This document shows, in pieces, positions 1,044 through 17,198 of a DNA stretch of 17,421 nt; positions within the stretch are counted from its first letter, which is position 1; each line of letters starts with the position of its first letter. The position numbers and the translations under genes were made by a program. The stretch lies in assembly GCA_011364925.1 (NCBI GenBank), contig RDOA01000064.1:1-17421 (forward strand), in the 5' to 3' direction. The stretch comes from Promethearchaeota archaeon. Its GTDB lineage: Archaea; Asgardarchaeota; Lokiarchaeia; Sigyniarchaeales; SOKP01. The notes under the pieces were generated by a model that saw only the letters and a list, made by a program, of their open reading frames with translations, did no database searches and had not been told where the DNA came from.

Positions 1044-2366
1044 TTAAATCTTTTTTTTTTCTTTGTCTTTTAAAATTAAATTTCTGTATTTTTCAATTTC
1101 TTCCACGTTAAAAAACCAAGGAACTTCATTTCTTCTATAAACGTGAAGAGTAATAGTAAATCCTTTTTGTTCCTCAAACCCTCTAATTCCTAAAAGTTGA
1201 TCGTAACCCACGATTATTCTATCTAGCTTTTTTAATTCTTTCAGACCTTTTATCTCTATTAAAGGATTTAACGCTACTGATAGAGTTTCTAAACTTGGAA
1301 AATTCCCAAGATCTAAGGTCTTTAACTGGTTATTGGATAGATATAACCCTTCAAGATGAGGTAGAACTCCACGAATTCGTAACTCTGAAATTAAATTGTG
1401 ATCTAGTATTAATGTTTCAAGATCTTGTAAATTCTCAAGCCCGTTTATTTCTTCAATTTGATTAAAGGCTAGGTGCAATACTTTCAATTTTTTTAAATCA
1501 TATAGACCACCAATTTCTTTAACCTTGTTGTTAGATATGTCTAAAATCTCTAAATTTACTAAATTATTCAAGCCTTTTATCTCTGAAATTTTATTTTTCC
1601 CTAACTCCAAGCTTTTCAACTTTGGATAACGCTCCAAACCATCGACAACTTCTAAATCGGTTTCAGAAACATCTAAAAATTCTAGATTTGTTATATACTT
1701 TAAATGGCCAATTTCAGATAGCCTTCTTATACCTAGTCCCCAGAGTTTTAAACCCGTAATGAGTCCATTTTCTAGACTGTACTCGATTCCCTGTCTATAA
1801 TCAACTTGCTTTAAGTTAAAAGAATTAATTAAAGATAAGATTGACTTAAGATTTAAAAAAATCTCAAAAATTTGGTCTAAAGGCATTTTATCATAAGTAT
1901 TTACTTTAAAAAATCGCCTAAGGTCATAACAATATTCTTGCGCCAAGATACTAGGTTCGGTGTTAATGAATTCGTCCAAATCTCTTATAAGAACATCTCT
2001 TAGTTGGAACTCGTCTAAGTAATTCAAGTGTTCAAATGCTATAATTAAATTTTTTGGAAAAGTTTCGTTTTTGACCACCCATTTTAACAGATCCGTAACT
2101 TCTTCTTTATATAGCGAAGTGATAACCTCAAGTGCGGAAGCCCGAACTTGTCCACTTAAATCTGAAACAACCAATTCTTCCAGAAATTTATAAACACGAT
2201 TATTTTTTATACCTAAATCACTCAAAAGTTCGATATACTGGACTCTTTCGCTCTCTTCTTTTAAGTTTTCAACATTGAAAAATATAAGCTCTAAAGCAGT
2301 ATTTTCATCTATCTGCTTGCGTTTTAGTTGTTGTTTTAGGATTTCTGAGGTCTGATTCGGCTCCAT
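1044..2366 (-). CDS. Leucine-rich repeat protein (SDS22-like 22-aa LRRs) with an N-terminal helical/HEAT-like domain
   Basis: About 8 repeats of LxxLxLxxNxIxxIxGL in the C-terminal half (e.g. LKSLELGKNKISEIKGLNNL). The N-terminus is homologous to the neighbouring LRR gene. Confidence 0.93.
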   Translation of the reverse strand: MEPNQTSEILKQQLKRKQIDENTALELIFFNVENLKEESERVQYIELLSDLGIKNNRVYKFLEELVVSDLSGQVRASALEVITSLYKEEVTDLLKWVVKNETFPKNLIIAFEHLNYLDEFQLRDVLIRDLDEFINTEPSILAQEYCYDLRRFFKVNTYDKMPLDQIFEIFLNLKSILSLINSFNLKQVDYRQGIEYSLENGLITGLKLWGLGIRRLSEIGHLKYITNLEFLDVSETDLEVVDGLERYPKLKSLELGKNKISEIKGLNNLVNLEILDISNNKVKEIGGLYDLKKLKVLHLAFNQIEEINGLENLQDLETLILDHNLISELRIRGVLPHLEGLYLSNNQLKTLDLGNFPSLETLSVALNPLIEIKGLKELKKLDRIIVGYDQLLGIRGFEEQKGFTITLHVYRRNEVPWFFNVEEIEKYRNLILKDKEKKKI

Positions 2367-2388
2367 ATTAATTATATAACAACAAAGA

Positions 2389-2396
2389 TATTTAAA
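2389..2396 (-). promoter_or_regulatory. Archaeal TATA box (TTTAAATA), probably a leaderless transcript
   Basis: 22 nt upstream of the ATG at 2366; no SD visible. Confidence 0.6.
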
Positions 2397-2583
2397 TCTA
2401 TTCTATCATGCAGGTTATTTGAAAAATTATAAATTCACCTTGACATTGAGGATTTAGATACAGATATTCTGATTAAGTTTAATGAATTATTCTTTTTTTT
2501 AAAATAAAAATTTCTTTTTCAGTGTTATTGATATAACGATTACTTTAGGAAGAAAAATCTTCGCTGCTAAATTCAGGTAAAAA

Positions 2584-4035
2584 CTAAAAATCAATATTAA
2601 TTTTTTTTTTTTTTTTAAGATCTTCTATAATCTTAAATAGAGGTTCAGAAAGATGATTGTTGGAAAGATCGATATCTACAAACGAATCTATGGTTTCCAA
2701 CCCACACAATTGTGATATTCTATTATTTCGAATGTTTATATTCCTAATTGAAGGTAATTTCTCCAAATACCGAAAAACTTCAATTTTGTTATTGTTTAAC
2801 CAGAGCTTTTCCAAACTCTTAAGTCCATTCATTCCTTCGATTTTTTTAATCAGATTGTTTCCTAAATCCAACTCGACAAGATTTATCAAATTTTCAATGC
2901 TTGAAATATGTGTAATTTTATTCCCGTTTAAATCCAAGATCTCTAATTCTTTTAAGTGTTCTATACCTTTAATTTCTCTTATCTTATTGTTAGCTAAATA
3001 CAAGCCTTTAAGATGTCGTAGAAGTTCTAATCCCTTTATCTCCTCTATATGATTCTCATTAAGATTTAAATCTTGTAAATTTGAAAGCTCCTCTAAGCAC
3101 TTGATTTCGCTAACATGGTTCCCCCACATAATTAACGATTTTAATCGCTTTAAATTATCTAGCCCCTTAATTTCCTTAATACTGTTACCGGCTAAAGATA
3201 AATATTTTAATCTTACCAAATTTTCAAGGTTTTCTATTTCTGAAATTGAATTTTCTGATAAATCCAGCGTTTTTAGATCGGGAAAGTAATCTAAATCTCC
3301 AATCTCCCTAAAACCGCACATCTTTAAGGTTAGCTCCTCTAACCTCCGTAAGTTCTCTAAACCTTCAATATCGGACGGGCAATCCCAATTTTCAAAATCG
3401 CTTCCTCCAATAAATAGACTGATCACATAACCATCCTTTAGATCGTGCCCTAGATCGTAAAATGTATTATAATGATCTCCTATAAATACCAATGTCTCGA
3501 ACCCTAAGAAAATTTCTAAAAGTTTATCCGTAGGAATCTCATTGAACGGTGCATCGTTAAAATAATCGCGATAATCCCCTACCAAAGCTTCCATGTGTGG
3601 TCTAAATTGCGACTTCACAAAGTCGATGTTACCTGAAAACACGGAATTGAAGGATTCGATAATAAGCTCACGCAGTGTCCCTTCAGCCTTTTTAAGTAAT
3701 GCCTTAAAGATTCTTGAGACTAACGATAACGACATTTTCTGCTTGATTAACCACCTTATAGTTTCTACTCCTCTCGTTAAAAATTTATCTATAAGAATTT
3801 CTGCTGCATATTCTTGAATTCTCAAGCTAGAATCAGAAATCACTAATCCTTCGATAAACCTATAGTGAGCATCGTCTTTCAGGTTCATTTGGCTTAACAG
3901 GTGTATACTCTTTACTCTATCCCCCTCATTTTCACTCTCTTCCATAACCGAGATTAACAACGCAATTGCTGTCTTTTCGTCTATTTCTCCTCCCTTTAAC
4001 TTAGAATCTACAACTTCTGGTGAAGGATTAGCCAT
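2584..4035 (-). CDS. Leucine-rich repeat protein (SDS22-like) with an N-terminal helical/HEAT-like domain
   Basis: About 11 regular 22-aa LRRs (LKTLDLSENSISEIENLENL, LKYLSLAGNSIKEIKGLDNL…). N-terminal IDEKTAIALL…DRVKSIHLL matches IDENTALELI…ERVQYIELL in the paralogue. Confidence 0.94.
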   Translation of the reverse strand: MANPSPEVVDSKLKGGEIDEKTAIALLISVMEESENEGDRVKSIHLLSQMNLKDDAHYRFIEGLVISDSSLRIQEYAAEILIDKFLTRGVETIRWLIKQKMSLSLVSRIFKALLKKAEGTLRELIIESFNSVFSGNIDFVKSQFRPHMEALVGDYRDYFNDAPFNEIPTDKLLEIFLGFETLVFIGDHYNTFYDLGHDLKDGYVISLFIGGSDFENWDCPSDIEGLENLRRLEELTLKMCGFREIGDLDYFPDLKTLDLSENSISEIENLENLVRLKYLSLAGNSIKEIKGLDNLKRLKSLIMWGNHVSEIKCLEELSNLQDLNLNENHIEEIKGLELLRHLKGLYLANNKIREIKGIEHLKELEILDLNGNKITHISSIENLINLVELDLGNNLIKKIEGMNGLKSLEKLWLNNNKIEVFRYLEKLPSIRNINIRNNRISQLCGLETIDSFVDIDLSNNHLSEPLFKIIEDLKKKKKINIDF

Positions 4036-4343: not shown

Positions 4344-4373
4344 AAACTAGTAAATTTGTACGGGGTAAAAAAT

Positions 4374-5042
4374 ATGGTGTTTGAAGACTACTACGACCAA
4401 TTTTTCAACGCTCGAAGGTCTTTGGAAGACCCTTATCGCAAGGTAACAATTTCAAAAGAAAAATATAAAGAGCTTGTAGAGATTGCCGAAAAATACGAGA
4501 TGCTCGTAAAGAAGTTAGATCAAGTTGAAGCTAAAAAGTCAGAGTTGGAAAAGCAAATCGAATTTCTAAAAGAGGACGGTAGAAAATTAAAAGAATTAGA
4601 GGAGAAAACCGAGAAATATTTAAATGCTTTAGTGAGAACGCAAGCAGACTTTGATAACTACAAAAAGGCAAACAATCGAGAGAACGAGAGATATCGAGAG
4701 CGCGTTAAAGAGGATATGCTGAAAAAATTGATTAAGCATTACGAGGATTTACTACGAGCTTTTAATGTATTGGAGATAATTGACAAGGGAGAGTCGGTAA
4801 AAAAGGGTTTTAAAATGATCGTTGATAACTTTGAAAAATTGTTGGAAGAAGAGGGAGTAAGTCCTATGAATCCGGAAGGAGAGAAGTTTGATCCTTACAA
4901 GCATGAAGCTTTAATGGTAGAGGAGACCGAGGAACTCCCTGATAGCACTGTTATTGAAGAATTAAATAAAGGTTATTATTTAAATAACAAGGTATTGAGA
5001 CCCGCTGGGGTTAAGATATCAAAAACCAAATCAAATTTATAA
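4374..5042 (+). CDS. grpE: Nucleotide exchange factor GrpE
   Basis: Motifs RTQADFDNYKK, GEKFDPYKHEA, KGYYLNNKVLRPAGV, directly before dnaK. The ATG at 4374, downstream of GGGGT, is preferred over the TTG at 4356. Confidence 0.95.
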   Translation: MVFEDYYDQFFNARRSLEDPYRKVTISKEKYKELVEIAEKYEMLVKKLDQVEAKKSELEKQIEFLKEDGRKLKELEEKTEKYLNALVRTQADFDNYKKANNRENERYRERVKEDMLKKLIKHYEDLLRAFNVLEIIDKGESVKKGFKMIVDNFEKLLEEEGVSPMNPEGEKFDPYKHEALMVEETEELPDSTVIEELNKGYYLNNKVLRPAGVKISKTKSNL

Positions 5043-5090
5043 ATTTAAACAAAAATCATAATAAAAATAAAAAAAAAGAAGTGAAAAAAT

Positions 5091-6992
5091 ATGGGAAAAA
5101 TAATTGGTATTGACTTAGGAACTTCCAATTCAGCTGCTGCTGTATTAATCGGGGGTAAGCCTACTATCATTCCAAGTGCCGAAGGTAATACATTAGGTGG
5201 AAAAGCTTTCCCTTCTGTCGTAGCATTTACGAAGGATGGGCAGAGGTTAGTAGGGGAACCTGCGAGAAGACAGGCGATTTCAAACCCAGATCGAACGATT
5301 ACAGCTATAAAGCGAAAGATGGGAACCTCCTATAAGGTAAATATCGAAAACAAAGAATACACGCCGCAAGAAATATCGGCAATGATTCTAAGGAAGATCA
5401 AAGAAGACGCGAGCGCCTATTTAGGCGAAGAAGTGACTGATGCTATTATTACTGTGCCTGCTTACTTTAACGATAATCAAAGACAAGCCACGAAAGACGC
5501 GGGTAAGATCGCAGGATTAAATGTTAAGCGTTTAATTAACGAACCTACTGCCGCAGCCGTAGCATACGGGTTAGATAAGAAGAATGCAAAATTAAAAATC
5601 GCAGTTTTAGATCTAGGTGGTGGAACTTTTGATGTTACTATCATGGAGATGGACAACCAAGTTTTTGAAGTTGTCTCAACTGCTGGAGACACTGCTTTAG
5701 GAGGAACTGATATGGATAGGATTCTAGTAAATTACGTTGTTGACGAATTTAAGTCTCAAGAAGGCGTTGATTTGAGCAACGATTCTATGGCAATGCAAAG
5801 AATTAGAGAGGCGGTTGAAAAGGCTAAGATCGAATTATCGACTTCAGTATCAACTGATATCAACTTACCATACATAACGGCGACTAATTCTGGTCCAAAG
5901 CATTTGACAATGAGCCTTACGAGAGCAAAATTGGAGCAACTGATTGATCCTATTTTGAAGAGATTAGAAGCACCAATAATTAAAGCATTGAAAGACGCGG
6001 GATTAAGCAAAGGACAAGTTGATAAAGTCATTCTAGTTGGTGGACCAACGAGAATGCCTAGCGTTCAAAAGATTTTCGAAGATTTCTTAGGGAAAAAGCC
6101 CGAAAGAAGCATAGATCCTATGGAGTGTGTCGCGATGGGTGCTGCTGTTCAAGGTGGTGTGTTGACTGGAGAAGTAGAAGATCTACTGCTCTTAGATGTC
6201 ACTCCATTATCTTTAGGAGTTGAAACTTTAGGAGGAGTATTTACCAAATTGATTAACAGAAATACGACGATTCCAACTAAAAAAGCTGAAATATTTTCCA
6301 CAGCTGCTGACAACCAGCCTGCTGTAGAAATTCACGTATTACAAGGAGAACGCCCAAAAGCTGCTGACAACATTACATTAGGAAGGTTTCATTTGACGGG
6401 AATCCCACCTGCTCCGCGAGGTTTGCCTCAAATTGAAGTGACATTCGACATCGATCAAAACGGTATTATTAACGTATCAGCTAAAGACAAGGGAACTGGT
6501 AAAAGTCAATCAATAACAATAACCGCATCAACCAAAATGTCAGAGGACGAAATAAACCAGAAAGTACGAGAAGCTGAAAGATACGCCGAAGAAGATCAAA
6601 AATTCAAAGATTTAACAGAAGCGAAGAATCACGCTGAAGCTTTGATCTATCAAACTGAGAAATTACTGAAAGAAAACGAATCAGTAATAGGTGATTTAAA
6701 GTCAAACATTTTAGATAAAATCTCCGAATTGAGAAGTGCTATGGAATCTGACGATGTCGCAAGAATAAAGAGTTCAATAGACACATTACAAAACTCTTTG
6801 CACGAGGTATCATCTCGAATGTATGGGCAACAACAAGGTCCAGCTCAAGGTGCGTATCAAGGTGCTCCACCTGGGGGTATGGGTGGAGATAATTACGGTT
6901 ATCAGGAAAAATCTCAAGATGAAATCGAAGAAGAAAAATTCCGTAGAGCAACTGGTCAAGACGATAATGTAGTGGATGCTGACTACGAGTAA
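5091..6992 (+). CDS. dnaK: Chaperone DnaK (Hsp70)
   Basis: [40 protein letters not shown] and [10 protein letters not shown]. It lacks the ~23-aa N-terminal insertion, i.e. the archaeal/Gram-positive type. Confidence 0.99.
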
Positions 6993-7004
6993 GTTCAGAA
7001 TTAG

Positions 7005-7045
7005 TTATTTTGATTTATTTTTTTTATTTTTTCTTTCTATTATTT
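7005..7045 (+). terminator. T-rich tract after dnaK, a possible partial archaeal terminator
   Basis: Several T-runs, including T9, between dnaK and dnaJ. Confidence 0.4.
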
Positions 7046-7068
7046 AAGATTAAAAGGGGTTAAAAATT

Positions 7069-8082
7069 ATGGCAAAAGATTATTATAATGTCTTAGGATT
7101 GGAGAAAGGCGCTTCCAAGGAGGAAATAAAAAGAGCATTTCGAAAATTAGCGCGAAAATATCACCCTGATGTTAATCCTGATGAAGGGAAATCAGGAGAA
7201 AAATTTAAGGAGATAAACGAAGCCTATAGTATATTAAACGACGATAAAAAAAGAGAAATGTACGATAAATTTGGAGTTGTGGAAGGAGATCCATCATCCT
7301 ATCAACAATGGGGAGGTGCTCCTGGTGGAGGAAGAGTGCACCGAAGCCCTGATGGGACCACTTATTATTATTCAACCTCGGGAGCACCGGGTAATTTCGA
7401 TTTCGGAGACATTTTTGGGAATTTTCGCAATTCTAATAAAAGACAATCCTCAGGAGGGTATGATTTCTTTAACGATTTAGGAGATATTTTTGATGTGTTT
7501 TCTAATCGAGGTGGTAGCACGCGAGCTAGGTCTAATAGAAATCAGAATTATCCAAGAGAAGGGGAGGATTTAAGATACGATATGGAAATAAGTTTCATGG
7601 ACGCTTTTCTTGGTGGAAAAAGACAAGTACAATATAAAGACCCCGCAACTGGATCGAATCAAACATTAACGATAACTGTTCCACGAGGTGTAAGAGACGA
7701 CCAAAAACTAAGACTTAAGGGAAAAGGAATGCCAGGTGAAAATGGAGGCGCTCCAGGAGATTTGTATATTGTAGTCCATGTAAAAGATCACGATTTGTTT
7801 GAAAGAGATGGTGACGATATATATGTTGATCAAGAGATTCCTTTTACTACTGCAACATTAGGCGGTAAAACTCAAGTGCCAGGAATAGAAAATTCAATAA
7901 GTGTTACAGTTCCACCGGGAACAAAAGATTCAACAGTGTTAAGATTAAAGGAGAAGGGCTTTTACAAATTAAATTCTGAGAAGAGAGGTAATCAATTAGT
8001 AAGAGTAAAAATAAAAGTCCCTCATAAAACTAACAAGAAACAAAAAGAATTGTTAGAACAATTAAAAGCAACAGGTTTATAA
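7069..8082 (+). CDS. dnaJ: DnaJ-class co-chaperone, class B/type II (J-domain, G/F region, CTDs; no zinc finger)
   Basis: HPD motif (KYHPDVN), G/F-rich linker, GDLYIVV and FERDGDDI. The protein has no cysteine, so no CxxCxGxG. Confidence 0.93.
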
Positions 8083-8086
8083 GAAG

Positions 8087-8983
8087 GTGGATAACTTGGA
8101 AATCACATCCAATTTAAATGTAGTATCAGAAATTTGCCCTGAGTGTGGGGGAAGCATAATTGCCCTAAATCAAATAGGGGAAAATGTGTGTTCTCAATGT
8201 GGACTAGTAATAAATGAAAGAGGCGTGGATGTGAATCATAGTGATAAAAGAGCCTATACATCTCAAGAAAAAAAACAAAGGGAGCATACTGGAGCTCCAA
8301 TTTCAAGTTTACTTCCAGATATTGGTTTGACAACAGTTATTGACAGAAAAAGTATTAACGATCCAGATTTAAAAAGAGCAGTAAAATGGAATACGAGGAT
8401 TACTTGGGAAAAAAGAAATCTGCTTATCGCTGCAACAGAACTAAAAAGAATTTGCAGCAACTTAAACCTTCCAAATCATATTAAACTCGAAGCCATTAAA
8501 TTGTATAAAGATGCTTTTAAGAGAAAATTATTACGCGGGAGATCTATTAATTCTATGATAGCTGCTTGTATTTACTTAGCTATAAGGTTAAAAAAAATAC
8601 CCCGGACTTTACAAGAAATATTAGAGGAATCATCAGAAAATGAAAAAGACATTCGAAGATGTTATCGCGTATTAATCAGAGAATTAAACATAAAATCACC
8701 TAACACTAATCCAAGCGCTTTAATACCAACGTACATAGCTAATTTAAACCTTAATCACGAAATTTTAGAAATGGCTACAAAAATCGTAAATACATTCTCT
8801 ACCAAATTTTCCACGAGTGGAAAAGACCCAAAAGGAATTGTAGCCGGAGCTATTTATTTGGCCTGCCGATTAAAAGGTTTAGAGTTTACGCAAAAGCAGA
8901 TTGCCGATGTTGTAGGAATAACAGAGGTTACTCTTCGATCAAGATTTAAAGAAATCTCAACCAAATTAAATGTGGAGATTTAA
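8087..8983 (+). CDS. tfb: Transcription initiation factor IIB (TFB) paralogue
   Basis: Zn ribbon CPECGG…CSQCG, two cyclin folds (LLRGRS, GKDPKGIVAGAIY), and the HTH TQKQIADVVGITEVTLRSR. Confidence 0.96.
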   Translation: MDNLEITSNLNVVSEICPECGGSIIALNQIGENVCSQCGLVINERGVDVNHSDKRAYTSQEKKQREHTGAPISSLLPDIGLTTVIDRKSINDPDLKRAVKWNTRITWEKRNLLIAATELKRICSNLNLPNHIKLEAIKLYKDAFKRKLLRGRSINSMIAACIYLAIRLKKIPRTLQEILEESSENEKDIRRCYRVLIRELNIKSPNTNPSALIPTYIANLNLNHEILEMATKIVNTFSTKFSTSGKDPKGIVAGAIYLACRLKGLEFTQKQIADVVGITEVTLRSRFKEISTKLNVEI

Positions 8984-12400: not shown

Positions 12401-13873
12401 TCAACTTAAATCTATTGTCTCATTTTTATTTGGAATTATTACATTAATTTCTGAATTGTCAAAATAATCTCTGAAAAAGAGGGGGTGTTCTGTATGAATG
12501 GGAACCAAATATTCAGGATTTACTGAATTAATAAAGTTAATTAAATGATGTGGCATTGCGTGTCCAGACGCGTGGATTTTGTAAGAAGGGATCCCGTGCT
12601 TTCGAAAATAGTGGTTTAATGTTCTATTATTATCGAGATATTCCTCAGTATAGGGATCAATACTGGATGAGATAAAAGCACCTTTCAAATTTTGATTTAT
12701 CTTCTCGATTATATCTTTTTGAAGAGATGTTATGCAAAAGAAAAATCCTTTTTGTAAATCTTTAATATCCCTTTGAGTTATAAACCTGTATCCTTTATGT
12801 TCAGAATACATTTTTTGTCTAATTTTTTCTTGCCATCGATATTTTACATTACCCCAAGAGAGAATTATTATGTGGTCGTCATCTATTATATTCGGATCCT
12901 TCATACTCGCATATATCTCATCTTTATTCATAACATAATAAAAATACGCATCTTTTTCAGTAATTATGAACTTCCAACCATATTTTTTCGCAATAAAGGA
13001 GAAAGTTCTGAATCTATCAAGGTTTAAACGATCGTATTTCACCAAGAAGAAATCAAACGGATTATCAACAAACAATTGTTCTAAATTCTGCTCTACAAAT
13101 TCCTCAGACTCAATTGTACCGCGATTAATATGCGTACCTTCACATATAAGAAGCTTTATCCTGTCAGTTTTATCTTTTTCTAGGTCTTGGTCACTAAGAT
13201 CTTTAGAGGGAGTATTACTCAAATTTTTTTTTATTTCTAACAAAAAGTCCTGCGTCATATTTGATAAGGGACCATGCATCCTAAAATCTCCAGAATACAC
13301 AACGATACCTTTTGAAGTTTTAATAATAAAACCATAAGCCGCGGGAATCGAATGATCTACATGAACAGGCACTATTTCTAAACCTTTGATATCAAGCACA
13401 TCACCTGTTCGAAAAAGTCTCCAATCTAACCCATCGTAGTTATTACAAATTGAATGTCTTGAAGATTTATAGTAAGCGGATATTATCTTTTTAGTAAAAA
13501 CTCCCGTATATATAGGAATAGTTCTGTTAGTGAATGAAAGCCCGTAAAAGTGGTCTTTATGAGGGTGACTTACCAGTATCCCATCTATATTCGTAGATGG
13601 TTCCTGAAATTTTTTGTCTTTGCTAGTTTTATAATTTAGGTATAAATTTTTAACAGAAAGATCTTCTGCCTTTGGTAATAACCCTAATTTTATTAGTTCC
13701 TTAATTGAGGATGGTTCCTCAAACTTTTCAAAGATATCGTTAAACTTCTTTATGTTTATTCCGAAATCAAGAAAAATTTTCACATCGTACTCGAAATCTT
13801 CCAATAATACATTATTTCCTCCAACTTCATTCACTCCCCCTAAAAAAGTAAGTCTTACACCTGTAGTTTTCAT
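12401..13873 (-). CDS. Metallo-beta-lactamase/beta-CASP nuclease, RNase J-like
   Basis: GGVNEVGGN, SHPHKDH (HxHxDH), VDHSIP, YSGDFR, CEGT, HASGH and VPIH motifs. Confidence 0.9.
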   Translation of the reverse strand: MKTTGVRLTFLGGVNEVGGNNVLLEDFEYDVKIFLDFGINIKKFNDIFEKFEEPSSIKELIKLGLLPKAEDLSVKNLYLNYKTSKDKKFQEPSTNIDGILVSHPHKDHFYGLSFTNRTIPIYTGVFTKKIISAYYKSSRHSICNNYDGLDWRLFRTGDVLDIKGLEIVPVHVDHSIPAAYGFIIKTSKGIVVYSGDFRMHGPLSNMTQDFLLEIKKNLSNTPSKDLSDQDLEKDKTDRIKLLICEGTHINRGTIESEEFVEQNLEQLFVDNPFDFFLVKYDRLNLDRFRTFSFIAKKYGWKFIITEKDAYFYYVMNKDEIYASMKDPNIIDDDHIIILSWGNVKYRWQEKIRQKMYSEHKGYRFITQRDIKDLQKGFFFCITSLQKDIIEKINQNLKGAFISSSIDPYTEEYLDNNRTLNHYFRKHGIPSYKIHASGHAMPHHLINFINSVNPEYLVPIHTEHPLFFRDYFDNSEINVIIPNKNETIDLS

Positions 13874-14316: not shown

Positions 14317-15753
14317 CTATAATTGGTTTTTTAAATCGAGTGTTTTGTATCTAATCGGAGAGTTCGTCCCTCGTTCCAAGTAAAAAAACTCACATTTTTG
14401 AGGTTTAAAGTTATTTTTTAAGAATTTTACAATTTCTAATCCTTTAGAAAACTCGTCGCAGATAAAGATATCAATGCTGATGTAACCATGTTCAGGCCAA
14501 GTATGAATTGCTGCATGACTTGTCTTAAGTATAGCAACAGAACTAAATCCATGTGGTTTATAGTGGTGATGAAATACATCAAGAACTGTTAAACCTGCCG
14601 AAACTAAAGCATTATAAAATGTGTCTTGAATGTTTTTACTCTCGAGTAAATAGTTTTGATTTTCAAAGTGCATTTCACCAATGAAGTGATATCCAAGAGG
14701 GCGAAAAGGGAGTGTGTCTTGAATTTTTACTTCGGAAGTATAAATTGGATTAAGTTTTAGGCTTAAATCATCCCCTATTGAACTTACTGCGCGTGTTAGT
14801 TGTAGATAATATAGATGGCTAAATTGCCCTAAAATGCTCGCTCCTTTATAAATGTTGAAGTAAGGGATCATTTCATTGATTGTAAATCCATGATCTAAAA
14901 TTGATAATTGTAGCTGAAGCATTTCTTTTGGGGGTTTGTTTCCAAAGCATAAAAGGCATTTTTTTCCAATAACATCGTGCCAACCTCCATCAATTTTAAT
15001 TGAAGTCCTTAACACTTGACGAGCTCTTTTTAGAAACAATCTTAATCCCTCATTGGTATATGGAGGATCCATAATCACGATGTCATATTCATTAACTACA
15101 TCTTTGGGACAAGCTTCTCTGAGATCAAAGGGGATCACATTGAAATTTTTGAGTGATAATCTTGAAGCAGTCTTTGAAAGGAAGTCAATAATGTTTGGAT
15201 CAATATCAATAACAGTAATTTTTTCAGCAAGGTCTAATAACCCAACGGCTATAGAGGTTGCATCATCATCGCCTAGAAAGATCATCTTTTTCCCTTCAAT
15301 ACTCCCCTTTTTTAATAAGTAAAACACACGATTAATAACTGTAGCGGGAGTAGCATGAGATTGATCCAACGCAAAATCGGGTTCTGGGCGTTCGTTTAAG
15401 ATATCTGTTATTTTCATTATTCCCTTTAAGTGTTCAGGAATTTCAGGCGTAGATACATCTAGAATGCCTGGAAGAGGATCAAATTCAAATCTCAAACCAA
15501 GATTTTTCCTAATCCATTCCCTTCCTGTATCCCCAAGAAAATTTTTTTTCTCAATAATATTAGCTTTTACTAATTCACCCCGAACAGCAGCAAGAGCTGG
15601 GATCGCAATTCCAGTTTTTTGCGACACTTTTTTGTTTTTTAATGAAGGGAAGCGATACATGGCGAGAAGAATTGATAAAACACCTTCAATGCCCTCTGCG
15701 AGTTGAGCTCTTTCAGCTATTAAAGTAAGATTTTCTTCTATTTTTAGATCCAT
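14317..15753 (-). CDS. Fusion: BpsA-like (N4-bis(aminopropyl)spermidine synthase family) aminopropyltransferase + pyruvoyl-dependent S-adenosylmethionine decarboxylase proenzyme
   Basis: BpsA-family motifs RPEPDFALDQ, FLGDDD, VIDID, FDLR and DPPYT. SpeD motifs GYHFIGE and TSHAAIHTWPEHGYISIDIFIC. One continuous frame. Confidence 0.88.
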   Translation of the reverse strand: MDLKIEENLTLIAERAQLAEGIEGVLSILLAMYRFPSLKNKKVSQKTGIAIPALAAVRGELVKANIIEKKNFLGDTGREWIRKNLGLRFEFDPLPGILDVSTPEIPEHLKGIMKITDILNERPEPDFALDQSHATPATVINRVFYLLKKGSIEGKKMIFLGDDDATSIAVGLLDLAEKITVIDIDPNIIDFLSKTASRLSLKNFNVIPFDLREACPKDVVNEYDIVIMDPPYTNEGLRLFLKRARQVLRTSIKIDGGWHDVIGKKCLLCFGNKPPKEMLQLQLSILDHGFTINEMIPYFNIYKGASILGQFSHLYYLQLTRAVSSIGDDLSLKLNPIYTSEVKIQDTLPFRPLGYHFIGEMHFENQNYLLESKNIQDTFYNALVSAGLTVLDVFHHHYKPHGFSSVAILKTSHAAIHTWPEHGYISIDIFICDEFSKGLEIVKFLKNNFKPQKCEFFYLERGTNSPIRYKTLDLKNQL

Positions 15754-15907: not shown

Positions 15908-16750
15908 TTACGACTTGATTTTTTTCCAGATATAACCGTGTCCATCAAAGAGGATAAATATCGCAATAGCAGATACTACTAAAAAGAAAATAAGCAAATC
16001 TAAATCAGTTGGTATCCTTCCAAACAATGCTTCTAAATTAATAACGAAATTACTCATCCATGGCCAGGTACCAGGGAGTGGTTGTCCATTTAAAAGGAAA
16101 TATAAGAAATCCTCAAGAGTGCTATATTGTAAAAGCGTACCTGATACAAATATATTCCAGCTTTGTCTTTTAGAACCACCACCGAATTTCCATCCAATGG
16201 CAACAATAAGATAAAAGAATGTCATAAGCAACCCCCAAAAAGATAGATAATACATTGTCTTGTCAGTAACGCCACCATACCAAAGAGCATCGATTGCAAA
16301 GTTTACCAATATCCCGATGGGAACAATTATTACAAGATAAAGAACTAACAAAACGATTAGTCTATTCCTCATTGATTTCGGTTGAAGAATGAACGCTGGT
16401 ATTAATCCAAATAAAACCAATTGTAAGTATAAGAGAAAACCCTGTGAAGTTCCTAAAACGATGTAAAAAATGATAGGTATCCCATTTGCAATTAAAAATA
16501 AGACAATAGCAATAATTAACCATTTCTTATCTGATTTTCCCCGCTCGCTTTCCCTATTGCCCGCGAGATAAATAAAAACAATTGGTAGAATTAATCCCAA
16601 ACTCAGCAAACTAATTAACCATACAAAACGCATCATAATTCCTACTTCAGGATGCTCAGCTGCCCAATCTACTTCTGCTGTAAGGATGATTACCCCAATG
16701 AATATTGCAAGAACGATAAAATTCTTTATCCATGATTTAGTTTCAGACAT
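15908..16750 (-). CDS. Hypothetical polytopic membrane protein (about 8 TM)
   Basis: 280 aa with repeated hydrophobic segments. Confidence 0.88.
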   Translation of the reverse strand: MSETKSWIKNFIVLAIFIGVIILTAEVDWAAEHPEVGIMMRFVWLISLLSLGLILPIVFIYLAGNRESERGKSDKKWLIIAIVLFLIANGIPIIFYIVLGTSQGFLLYLQLVLFGLIPAFILQPKSMRNRLIVLLVLYLVIIVPIGILVNFAIDALWYGGVTDKTMYYLSFWGLLMTFFYLIVAIGWKFGGGSKRQSWNIFVSGTLLQYSTLEDFLYFLLNGQPLPGTWPWMSNFVINLEALFGRIPTDLDLLIFFLVVSAIAIFILFDGHGYIWKKIKS

Positions 16751-16850
16751 TTAATCTCATTTTATATTGAATTTTATTAAGCATAATGATTTACCAAATG
16801 TTAAAAAACTTGAGATTCGAATTGAATCAATAGTCAAAAAAAAGAGTCTA

Positions 16851-17198
16851 TTATTTCAAATTAATAGTTAATTTTTCCATATTCAGCTTCCATACTTTTT
16901 CAGGGGCCCCTATTCCTCCGCTAGGTTTATTCTCCGATATAATTATACCTACGTTCTCTAATTCCCGAAGATGATAATATAATGTTGGTTTCTGTAAATT
17001 CTTAAAATCACCTTTACCACACATTCCGTGACATTGACCATTACTATCTGCTTTTTTGCTTGCATCTTTAAGGTGATTAAGAATTTCCTCAGAAGTTTTT
17101 GGACCGTCTCCTAAAATGTCGATTAAGACCCATCTTATTTGGCAATGTAAGGCTTTGATATAGGTACCAATATTTTCTAAATCTATTTCTTTTGTCAT
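16851..17198 (-). CDS. ArsR-like winged-HTH transcriptional regulator
   Basis: KAL…IRWVLIDIL…GPKTSEEI, recognition helix KPTLYYHLRELENVGII, and wing GAPEKVWKL. Confidence 0.88.
   Translation of the reverse strand: MTKEIDLENIGTYIKALHCQIRWVLIDILGDGPKTSEEILNHLKDASKKADSNGQCHGMCGKGDFKNLQKPTLYYHLRELENVGIIISENKPSGGIGAPEKVWKLNMEKLTINLK

Follow-up and report, generated by a model that had tools for sequence, protein, structure and literature searches.

A fusion of a predicted BpsA-family aminopropyltransferase with a predicted S-adenosylmethionine decarboxylase in a Promethearchaeota archaeon

BpsA, the N4-bis(aminopropyl)spermidine synthase (EC 2.5.1.128) whose structure is known from Thermococcus kodakarensis (TK1691, PDB 5xnc; Tk-BpsA below) and Thermus thermophilus (PDB 6j27), takes its aminopropyl groups from decarboxylated S-adenosylmethionine (dcSAM). 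In Tk-BpsA a GDDD site positions the aminopropyl group of this donor, and orthologues of bpsA are confined to thermophiles according to a 2026 review (PMC12979288). The donor is the product of S-adenosylmethionine (SAM) decarboxylase (AdoMetDC, encoded by speD); the class 1b enzymes of this type, which include those of Thermotoga maritima (TM0655, PDB 1tlu) and Aquifex aeolicus (PDB 2iii), have S63, H68 and C83 as their processing and catalytic residues (PMC10407285). The AdoMetDC fusions in the literature are SpeD-SpeE and SpeD-SpeD fusions only (PMC11107197, PMC10407285), and for SpeD-SpeE fusions of Ca. Pelagibacter both activities have been shown in E. coli mutants (PMC11107197). Here we describe a gene that joins a BpsA-like domain to SpeD, found at positions 14317..15753 of the minus strand in a stretch of 17,421 nucleotides (contig RDOA01000064.1, assembly GCA_011364925.1, Promethearchaeota archaeon); this whole stretch is called the window.

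The fusion protein belongs to the same Pfam family as BpsA and has the same three-part layout, and it keeps the GDDD site, the Asp of DPP, the equivalent of Tyr290 and the Tyr of the tail. It differs from BpsA in its placement in a separate clade, in reading DPPYT rather than DPPET and IYTSE rather than LYDDEE, in the SpeD domain attached to it and in its occurrence in mesophile-type lineages; in archaea it is found without SpeE, while those canonical bpsA genes that we typed lie beside speE and speD. With class 1b AdoMetDC it shares the residues equivalent to Ser63, His68, Cys83 and Glu11, but Thr replaces Glu before the Ser, and the beta chain is about 350 residues longer at its N-terminus. 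The logic is the same as in Pelagibacter SpeD-SpeE, with donor-maker and donor-user on one polypeptide, although there the transferase is a SpeE (PF01564) at the C-terminal end and here it is a PF01861 protein at the N-terminal end, so that the order is reversed. The same enzyme families also stand side by side in separate bpsA-speD pairs, where they are two polypeptides and where several of the BpsA proteins are of the canonical type, and in Asgard speD-speE-bpsA clusters. Our searches of the literature turned up neither a BpsA-SpeD fusion nor BpsA homologues of mesophiles. This agrees with a preliminary description of the same DNA, which had regarded SpeD-SpeE fusions as known, as the characterised Pelagibacter examples (PMC11107197) bear out, and had been aware of no characterised BpsA-SpeD fusion.

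Our reading, to which we assign a probability of about 0.7, is that the protein is a bifunctional AdoMetDC and aminopropyltransferase, a self-processing module for dcSAM-dependent aminopropylation. The class 1b AdoMetDC domain would cleave itself between Thr411 and Ser412 and convert Ser412 into the pyruvoyl cofactor. A chain of 411 residues, made up of the winged-helix domain, the BpsA-like core and the SpeD beta strands, would remain bound non-covalently to an alpha chain of 67 residues. The AdoMetDC domain would turn SAM into dcSAM, and the BpsA-family domain would bind dcSAM through GDDD and pass its aminopropyl group to an amine acceptor. Direct channelling of dcSAM from one active site to the other, which the preliminary description had raised, is a conceivable further property.

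Domain architecture and the AdoMet decarboxylase half

The features of the gene are as follows.

14317..15753 (-): whole gene with its stop codon, encoding the BpsA-like::SpeD fusion protein of 478 residues; a single open reading frame (ORF) with an ATG start
15469..15753 (-): residues 1-95, a winged-helix-like N-terminal domain that has a homologous counterpart in Tk-BpsA and is strongly conserved in the family
14794..15414 (-): BpsA-family Rossmann aminopropyltransferase core, residues 114-320, from the matches to PF01861 and to Tk-BpsA 5xnc
15262..15273 (-): GDDD motif, residues 161-164, aligned to Gly157-Asp160 of Tk-BpsA
15055..15069 (-): DPPYT motif, residues 229-233; Asp229 corresponds to Asp225 of Tk-BpsA, and the Glu of BpsA is replaced by Tyr
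14704..14793 (-): tail and linker, residues 321-350, from the profile alignment; confidence of the structural model low here (57-71)
14731-14745 (-): IYTSE motif, residues 337-341, aligned to LYDDEE in the flexible C-terminal tail of BpsA
14320..14703 (-): class 1b AdoMetDC (SpeD) proenzyme domain, residues 351-478, from PF02675, TIGR03330 and the alignment to 1tlu and 2iii
14515..14523 (-): predicted self-cleavage site Thr411/Ser412-His413, with the Ser412 codon at 14520-14518 as predicted pyruvoyl precursor
14320..14520 (-): predicted alpha chain of 67 residues (412-478), with His417 (14503-14505) and Cys432 (14458-14460)

The two domains lie in one frame, and the ORF has no internal stop codon. 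Both Pfam matches are far above their cut-offs: BpsA_C (PF01861) covers residues 114-317 (E 4.4e-41, 141.2 bits against a cut-off of 27), and AdoMet_dc (PF02675) covers residues 356-462 over positions 1-107 of a profile of 107 (E 7.6e-28, 97.4 bits against a cut-off of 25). The NCBIfam equivalog model for AdoMetDC, TIGR03330, gave 95.1 bits (cut-off 75.65). A match to Spermine_synth (PF01564) stayed under its cut-off of 22.9, at 14.3 bits and E 0.031. The preliminary description had read a BpsA-family domain followed by SpeD in one ORF and had located GDDD, DPPYT and Ser412; the domains and all three sites are where it had placed them.

A word-indexed protein search returned at least 285 clusters at E <= 0.001. 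The best 120 of these all carry both Pfam domains, are 441-480 residues long and 61-86% identical to the fusion protein, and come under source names of Hermod-, Loki-, Prometh- and Thorarchaeota, in line with the Asgard origin that the preliminary description had thought probable. A fusion produced by misassembly or by a frameshift was ruled out because the architecture recurs in these 285 or more clusters, which stem from many assemblies, and the 120 align without breaks. Across these 120 clusters, GDDD (120/120), DPPYT, Thr411-Ser412-His413 (Ser412 in 120/120), Cys432 (120/120) and Glu360 are invariant, and His417 is kept in 119. The conservation of GDDD, DPPYT and the SpeD processing residues in the family therefore argues that both activities are under selection.

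The SpeD domain aligns with T. maritima AdoMetDC without a gap over about 113 residues. Ser412 falls on Ser63, the pyruvoyl-forming residue whose position is marked by the S63A entry 1tmi, His417 on His68, Cys432 on Cys83 and Glu360 on Glu11. In a sequence search against solved structures, the C-terminal part of the fusion matched the Aquifex and Thermotoga AdoMetDCs at E about 1e-15. The S-H...HTWPE signature of true AdoMetDC is retained. One Pro is reported to be present in every true AdoMetDC but not to be conserved among the arginine decarboxylase forms (PMC10407285); the two candidates for it, Pro400 and Pro420, are both present in the fusion protein. We infer that the SpeD domain is a working AdoMetDC, cleaving at Thr411/Ser412 into chains of 411 and 67 residues; these lengths are predicted because Ser412 aligns to Ser63, and the preliminary description had predicted the same site and the same two products.

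One feature of the SpeD domain counts against this assignment. The residue at position -1 to Ser412 is Thr411 and not the usual Glu, and it is invariant in the Loki-type family; elsewhere the Heimdall-type fusions have the canonical ESH, and a relative from the same genus (G093) has SSH. A Thr-Ser site is functional in a validated homologue, since in Desulfotignum phosphitoxidans the ornithine decarboxylase domain SpeD2 has an E-T-S site and is cleaved at that Ser (PMC10407285 Fig. S5). The SpeD-like domain could nonetheless be thought to have changed its function, having become an arginine or ornithine decarboxylase (SpeDA, SpeDC) or an inactive or regulatory domain that supplies no dcSAM of its own. 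Thr at -1 is one of the four residues that are diagnostic of SpeDC. In addition, the PF02675 scores of the fusion domains (85-101 bits) fall below those of the stand-alone Asgard SpeDs next to speE (114-134 bits). However, the other three SpeDC residues (Gln, Phe and Tyr) are absent, S-H, HTWPE and both prolines are kept, TIGR03330 scores above its equivalog cut-off, and the Heimdall-type fusions with ESH belong to the same clade. Moreover, the genome already has an arginine decarboxylase, PdaD, and no other AdoMetDC was found in it to feed the GDDD enzyme. We consider a changed function of this kind very improbable.

An AlphaFold2 model built with the family alignment had a mean predicted local distance difference test score (pLDDT) of 89.6 and a predicted template modelling score (pTM) of 0.71, and was uncertain only in the tail and linker at 320-350. 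The best Foldseek matches were the BpsA structures of T. kodakarensis, Pyrococcus furiosus and Thermus (E 2.5e-20, for 5xnc, to 8e-17), followed by T. maritima AdoMetDC (1tlu; TM score 0.87, root-mean-square deviation (rmsd) 1.9 A). The rmsd on the BpsA matches is large, probably reflecting a different orientation of the N-domain in the model. That domain is modelled as helical (pLDDT ~90) and gave weak HTH_24 and DtxR-type matches.

Relation of the transferase half to characterised BpsA

In a structure-sequence search with the single sequence, the N-terminal part matched Tk-BpsA 5xnc at E 9e-27, and a profile of 63 diverse fusions aligned to chain 21-369 of 5xnc at E 6.5e-59, covering the N-domain and the tail. 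Residue numbers were bridged through a canonical Asgard BpsA (L007, family f19; E 3.6e-116 to Tk-BpsA) and through the review (PMC12979288). For the acidic cluster of Tk-BpsA the residue numbers of the review are two off the PDB-chain count, so this cluster was mapped by sequence pattern only. MAFFT and hidden Markov model (HMM) alignments conflict over the last beta strand, where our mapping relies on the HMM alignment, on a larger MAFFT alignment and on the modelled secondary structure.

On this mapping Asp225 of Tk-BpsA corresponds to Asp229 and Tyr290 to Tyr302, invariant even among distant fusions. Glu259 falls in a two-residue insertion of Tk-BpsA and has no equivalent in the fusion (Pro274 region), Tyr316 aligns to Gln310, and a loop of 18 residues in Tk-BpsA is absent. 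The acidic tail, which has been proposed as an aminopropyl carrier in BpsA, keeps its Tyr and one Glu and has lost two Asp. In the fusion this BpsA-type tail is internal, with SpeD after it, and its Tyr338 is invariant in the 63 diverse fusions.

Phylogeny separates the two proteins as well. In an IQ-TREE analysis of 36 Asgard PF01861 domains, the fusions and the stand-alone DPPY proteins made up one clade of 27 rows (support of 96 in the Shimodaira-Hasegawa-like approximate likelihood ratio test, SH-aLRT), set apart from the clade of canonical BpsA, to which the Asgard protein used as the bridge belongs, and from a third, "DSSHC" type. In a FastTree analysis of 149 rows the Asgard fusions were again a single well-supported group (17 rows), and fusion as a state required at least four origins overall. 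Because it stands in a separate clade and differs in pocket residues, the transferase domain is, as judged by sequence, a member of the BpsA family and not an orthologue of characterised BpsA, with an acceptor pocket that differs. The third type is deeply separate; we observed it in Asgard families f18 and f8 (e.g. L010:1047-3527, L009:836-3305), in speD-speE-bpsA-like clusters whose PF01861 protein has GDDD but reads DSSHC or DSPHC.

These comparisons bear on the alternative that the protein is a true branched-chain synthase, which would add aminopropyl groups at the secondary N4 of spermidine or at the central nitrogen of homospermidine, with products of the N4-(bis)aminopropylspermidine type, while the fused SpeD supplied the donor. 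The homology to Tk-BpsA extends over its full length, N-domain and tail included, GDDD, Asp229 and Tyr302 are conserved, and BpsA structures are the best structural matches. Set against this are the separation of the clade from canonical BpsA, including the Asgard protein closest to Tk-BpsA, and the state of the pocket, in which Glu259 has no equivalent and Gln aligns with Tyr316, together with the missing loop of 18 residues and a tail that is less acidic. The gene content of the genomes, described below, adds to both sides.

A further question is whether the acceptor is a free polyamine at all, or rather a macromolecule or another amine, such as the N6 of adenine or a side chain in a protein. 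Methyltransferases of the N6-adenine and N5-glutamine kinds have DPPY as their motif IV signature, the N-domain is a winged helix, models for N6-adenineMlase, RsmD-like and HemK proteins gave weak matches, METTL5 and PH1948 were secondary structural matches, and relatives that read GDSD occur in genomes that have no source of dcSAM. Yet the methyltransferase matches are all below the curated cut-offs and reflect only the shared Rossmann core, BpsA acts on polyamines with the same N-domain and overall fold, and we found no conserved nucleic-acid or protein partner adjoining the fusion gene. We give an acceptor of this kind very little weight.

Polyamine genes of the genome and the distribution of SpeE

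The source assembly (3.9 Mb, 112 contigs, estimated to be 100% complete by marker genes) has one AdoMet_dc match and one BpsA_C match, both in the fusion gene. It has no match to SpeE (Spermine_synth, PF01564), none to the carboxyspermidine dehydrogenase domain (Sacchrp_dh_C, PF16653) and none to class 2 AdoMetDC, a model whose controls gave no positive. The fusion protein is thus the only AdoMetDC and the only aminopropyltransferase found in this genome. An alternative route to spermidine was considered and rejected: Sacchrp_dh_C is missing, and the three pyridoxal phosphate (PLP) decarboxylase homologues are LysA and two proteins below every equivalog cut-off. We thus found no spermidine supply in the genome, whether by SpeE or via carboxyspermidine.

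We did find a pyruvoyl arginine decarboxylase (PdaD), an agmatinase and two paralogues of deoxyhypusine synthase (DHS). An agmatine-dependent route to homospermidine has been described (PMC13625781), and this set of genes resembles it. Neither DHS copy reaches the NCBIfam equivalog cut-offs; both also match the diagmatine and homospermidine synthase models, and one of them may be a SpeY-type agmatine-dependent homospermidine enzyme. PdaD is divergent from one DHS paralogue (G000:C35:29520-31290; L003, L006), and the second lies directly beside the agmatinase and arginyl-tRNA synthetase (ArgRS) genes (G000:C20:27834-29625; L004, L005).

Because the fusion is the sole AdoMetDC and aminopropyltransferase found in the genome, its acceptor is probably a product of the core agmatine pathway, that is agmatine, putrescine or homospermidine. 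The product would then be spermidine, N1-aminopropylagmatine or an aminopropylated, possibly branched, derivative.

We compared 121 Asgard genomes by profile matches and read the motifs in part of the loci. All 12 genomes with the fusion, from two families, are without a true SpeE, and their best match to the SpeE model (E 5e-8) is a partial, generic methyltransferase match. A true SpeE (E <= 1e-48) is present in 21 genomes, every one of which also has speD as a gene of its own and a PF01861 gene; the latter is of the canonical or DSSHC type in the nine loci that were read, often in a speD-speE-bpsA cluster. Three genomes have a stand-alone GDDD-DPPY gene and no SpeE, and two of them have speD as well, either next to that gene or at another place. 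In 12 others a DPPY-clade gene has GDSD or GDGD in place of GDDD, its middle Asp having been lost, and there is no SpeD at all; these stand-alone proteins are from Asgard families f5 and f17 (e.g. L015:842-1987(-), L021:427-1626(+)) and may use a donor other than dcSAM. A true SpeE was also not found in five further archaeal genomes that carry the fusion or an adjacent pair, namely one Hodarchaeota, one Promethearchaeota and three Bathyarchaeia, the last three having an adjacent bpsA-speD pair and small assemblies. The fusion or DPPY type and SpeE are thus complementary in their distribution among the sampled archaea, and the pattern suggests that in archaea the DPPY clade occurs in place of SpeE and not beside it.

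Asgard family f12 (e.g. G057:C41:23988-24299, G011:C48:6168-6476) has stand-alone SpeD-like genes with weak scores (58-73 bits). The genomes concerned have no true SpeE and no match to PF01861 that exceeds the Pfam cut-off, and their SpeD-like genes may encode decarboxylases of arginine or ornithine.

The fusion is found well beyond the Loki-type family. An exhaustive HMMER search of representatives at 50% identity gave 5673 relatives, and among the best 149 of these together with 26 ORFs from Asgard loci, both domains were present in 35 proteins of 23-42% identity, two of them in reverse order. Further archaeal carriers are Odin-, Heimdall- and Hodarchaeales. The bacterial carriers include Vagococcus fluvialis, V. 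silagei, Erysipelothrix, Thermoflexus hugenholtzii, Lachnospiraceae, three Xenorhabdus species, Cytobacillus solani, Lysinibacillus and Paenibacillus motobuensis. NCBI labels such proteins "adenosylmethionine decarboxylase" or "bis-aminopropyl spermidine synthase family protein". Adjacent but separate genes, bpsA and then speD as in the fusion, were found in Bathyarchaeia, Clostridium faecium, Bipolaricaulota, Calditrichota and Thermoplasmatota, and a pair of this kind is likely to be the precursor of the fusion. These pairs, and the altered GDDD of clade members in genomes without SpeD, speak for a link of the transferase to dcSAM.

These distributions complete the case for and against a branched-chain synthase. 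That SpeE is also present in three of the five bacterial carriers favours it, as does the patchy occurrence of the gene, which would suit an add-on that decorates existing polyamines. Against it, no spermidine route was found in the source genome, and in the typed Asgard genomes canonical BpsA came with SpeE and the DPPY type did not. We consider it unlikely. The preliminary description had expected N4-bis(aminopropyl)spermidine or another branched polyamine as the product, a proposal that is not supported in that form: the clade is separate, Glu259 and the loop are missing, the tail is reduced and no spermidine supply was found in the genome.

A bifunctional enzyme that makes and uses dcSAM is the reading that we prefer, and it can be taken a step further. 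The DPPY clade, fused to or paired with SpeD, may be the primary aminopropyltransferase of many archaea, of the Heimdall/Hod type, the Loki type and the Bathyarchaeia, making spermidine or N1-aminopropylagmatine from putrescine or agmatine and replacing the non-orthologous SpeE. We put this forward tentatively and rate its chances somewhat below even.

Several observations weigh on the other side. The absence of SpeE rests on draft genomes. The loss of SpeD together with the change to GDSD is a correlation within one clade, and since f5 and f17 form that clade it counts as about one evolutionary event. With SpeE present in three of the five bacterial carriers, replacement of SpeE is not general to the fusion; among the cultured carriers, Vagococcus silagei is one in which SpeE was not found. 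The fusion gene is also accessory, being present in five of 20 other genomes of its own family, and the family genomes without it are also without any SpeD. DHS, in turn, is kept in all 41 genomes of the family, with one to four matches in each. Because the gene is patchy and DHS universal in the family, the product of the fusion is not essential to the lineage and is not an obligate hypusine donor.

Gene surroundings and meaning for archaeal polyamine synthesis

Other genes of the window are as follows.

12401-13873 (-): RNase J-like metallo-beta-lactamase/RMMBL protein, downstream of the fusion gene
within 15908-17198 (-): two upstream genes, for a 280-residue multi-pass membrane protein without a Pfam match and a 115-residue ArsR-like protein
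4356-8983 (+): grpE-dnaK-dnaJ chaperone operon, with a TFIIB (TFB) gene right behind it in the same orientation
1044-4035 (-): a pair of neighbouring leucine-rich-repeat proteins (440 and 483 residues), rich in LRR_4 and LRR_8 repeats

The neighbours do not make up a polyamine operon, a possibility that was considered and rejected: they are the RNase J-like beta-CASP protein, the unannotated membrane protein and the ArsR-like regulator. The last of these, as read from its sequence, resembles a winged-helix regulator of the ArsR type and has a Cys-rich insert. A pyruvate kinase gene is also in the window, farther from the fusion. A scan for promoters and terminators gave nothing above chance. 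Genes for PdaD, agmatinase, DHS or SpeE were likewise missing within 7 kb at eight other Asgard loci.

In two bacteria a gene for a TetR-family regulator stands directly upstream of the fusion (Xenorhabdus hominickii, L043:6463-8509; Vagococcus silagei, L039:6459-8332). The regulator and fusion genes of Xenorhabdus share a few bases, an overlap that points to a small, regulated unit of two genes. The bacterial contexts show only this regulator directly upstream and are silent on the substrate. A fragment of an IS1 transposase follows the Xenorhabdus copy, and the SpeE of X. hominickii appears to be split into two adjacent frames.

The component families of the fusion are known, and the joining of an enzyme to the supplier of its co-substrate is a familiar pattern. 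The main interest of the finding is that SpeE appears to have been replaced in several lineages of archaea. The current literature presents BpsA as an enzyme of thermophiles that serves branched polyamines (PMC12979288), but a much larger and uncharacterised branch of the family is tied to AdoMetDC, through fusion or adjacency, in sediment Asgard archaea, in Bathyarchaeia and in cultured bacteria. If the DPPY clade does provide the primary aminopropyltransferase of these archaea, the BpsA family would not be limited to thermophiles, nor would branching be its sole task, and maps of archaeal polyamine pathways would need a second family of aminopropyltransferases. The archaea usually taken to be the closest relatives of eukaryotes would then build spermidine with a different enzyme family from that used by eukaryotes, and this would provide a data point on the origin of eukaryotic SpeE and AdoMetDC, a question that has been raised previously (PMC10407285, PMC12803844).

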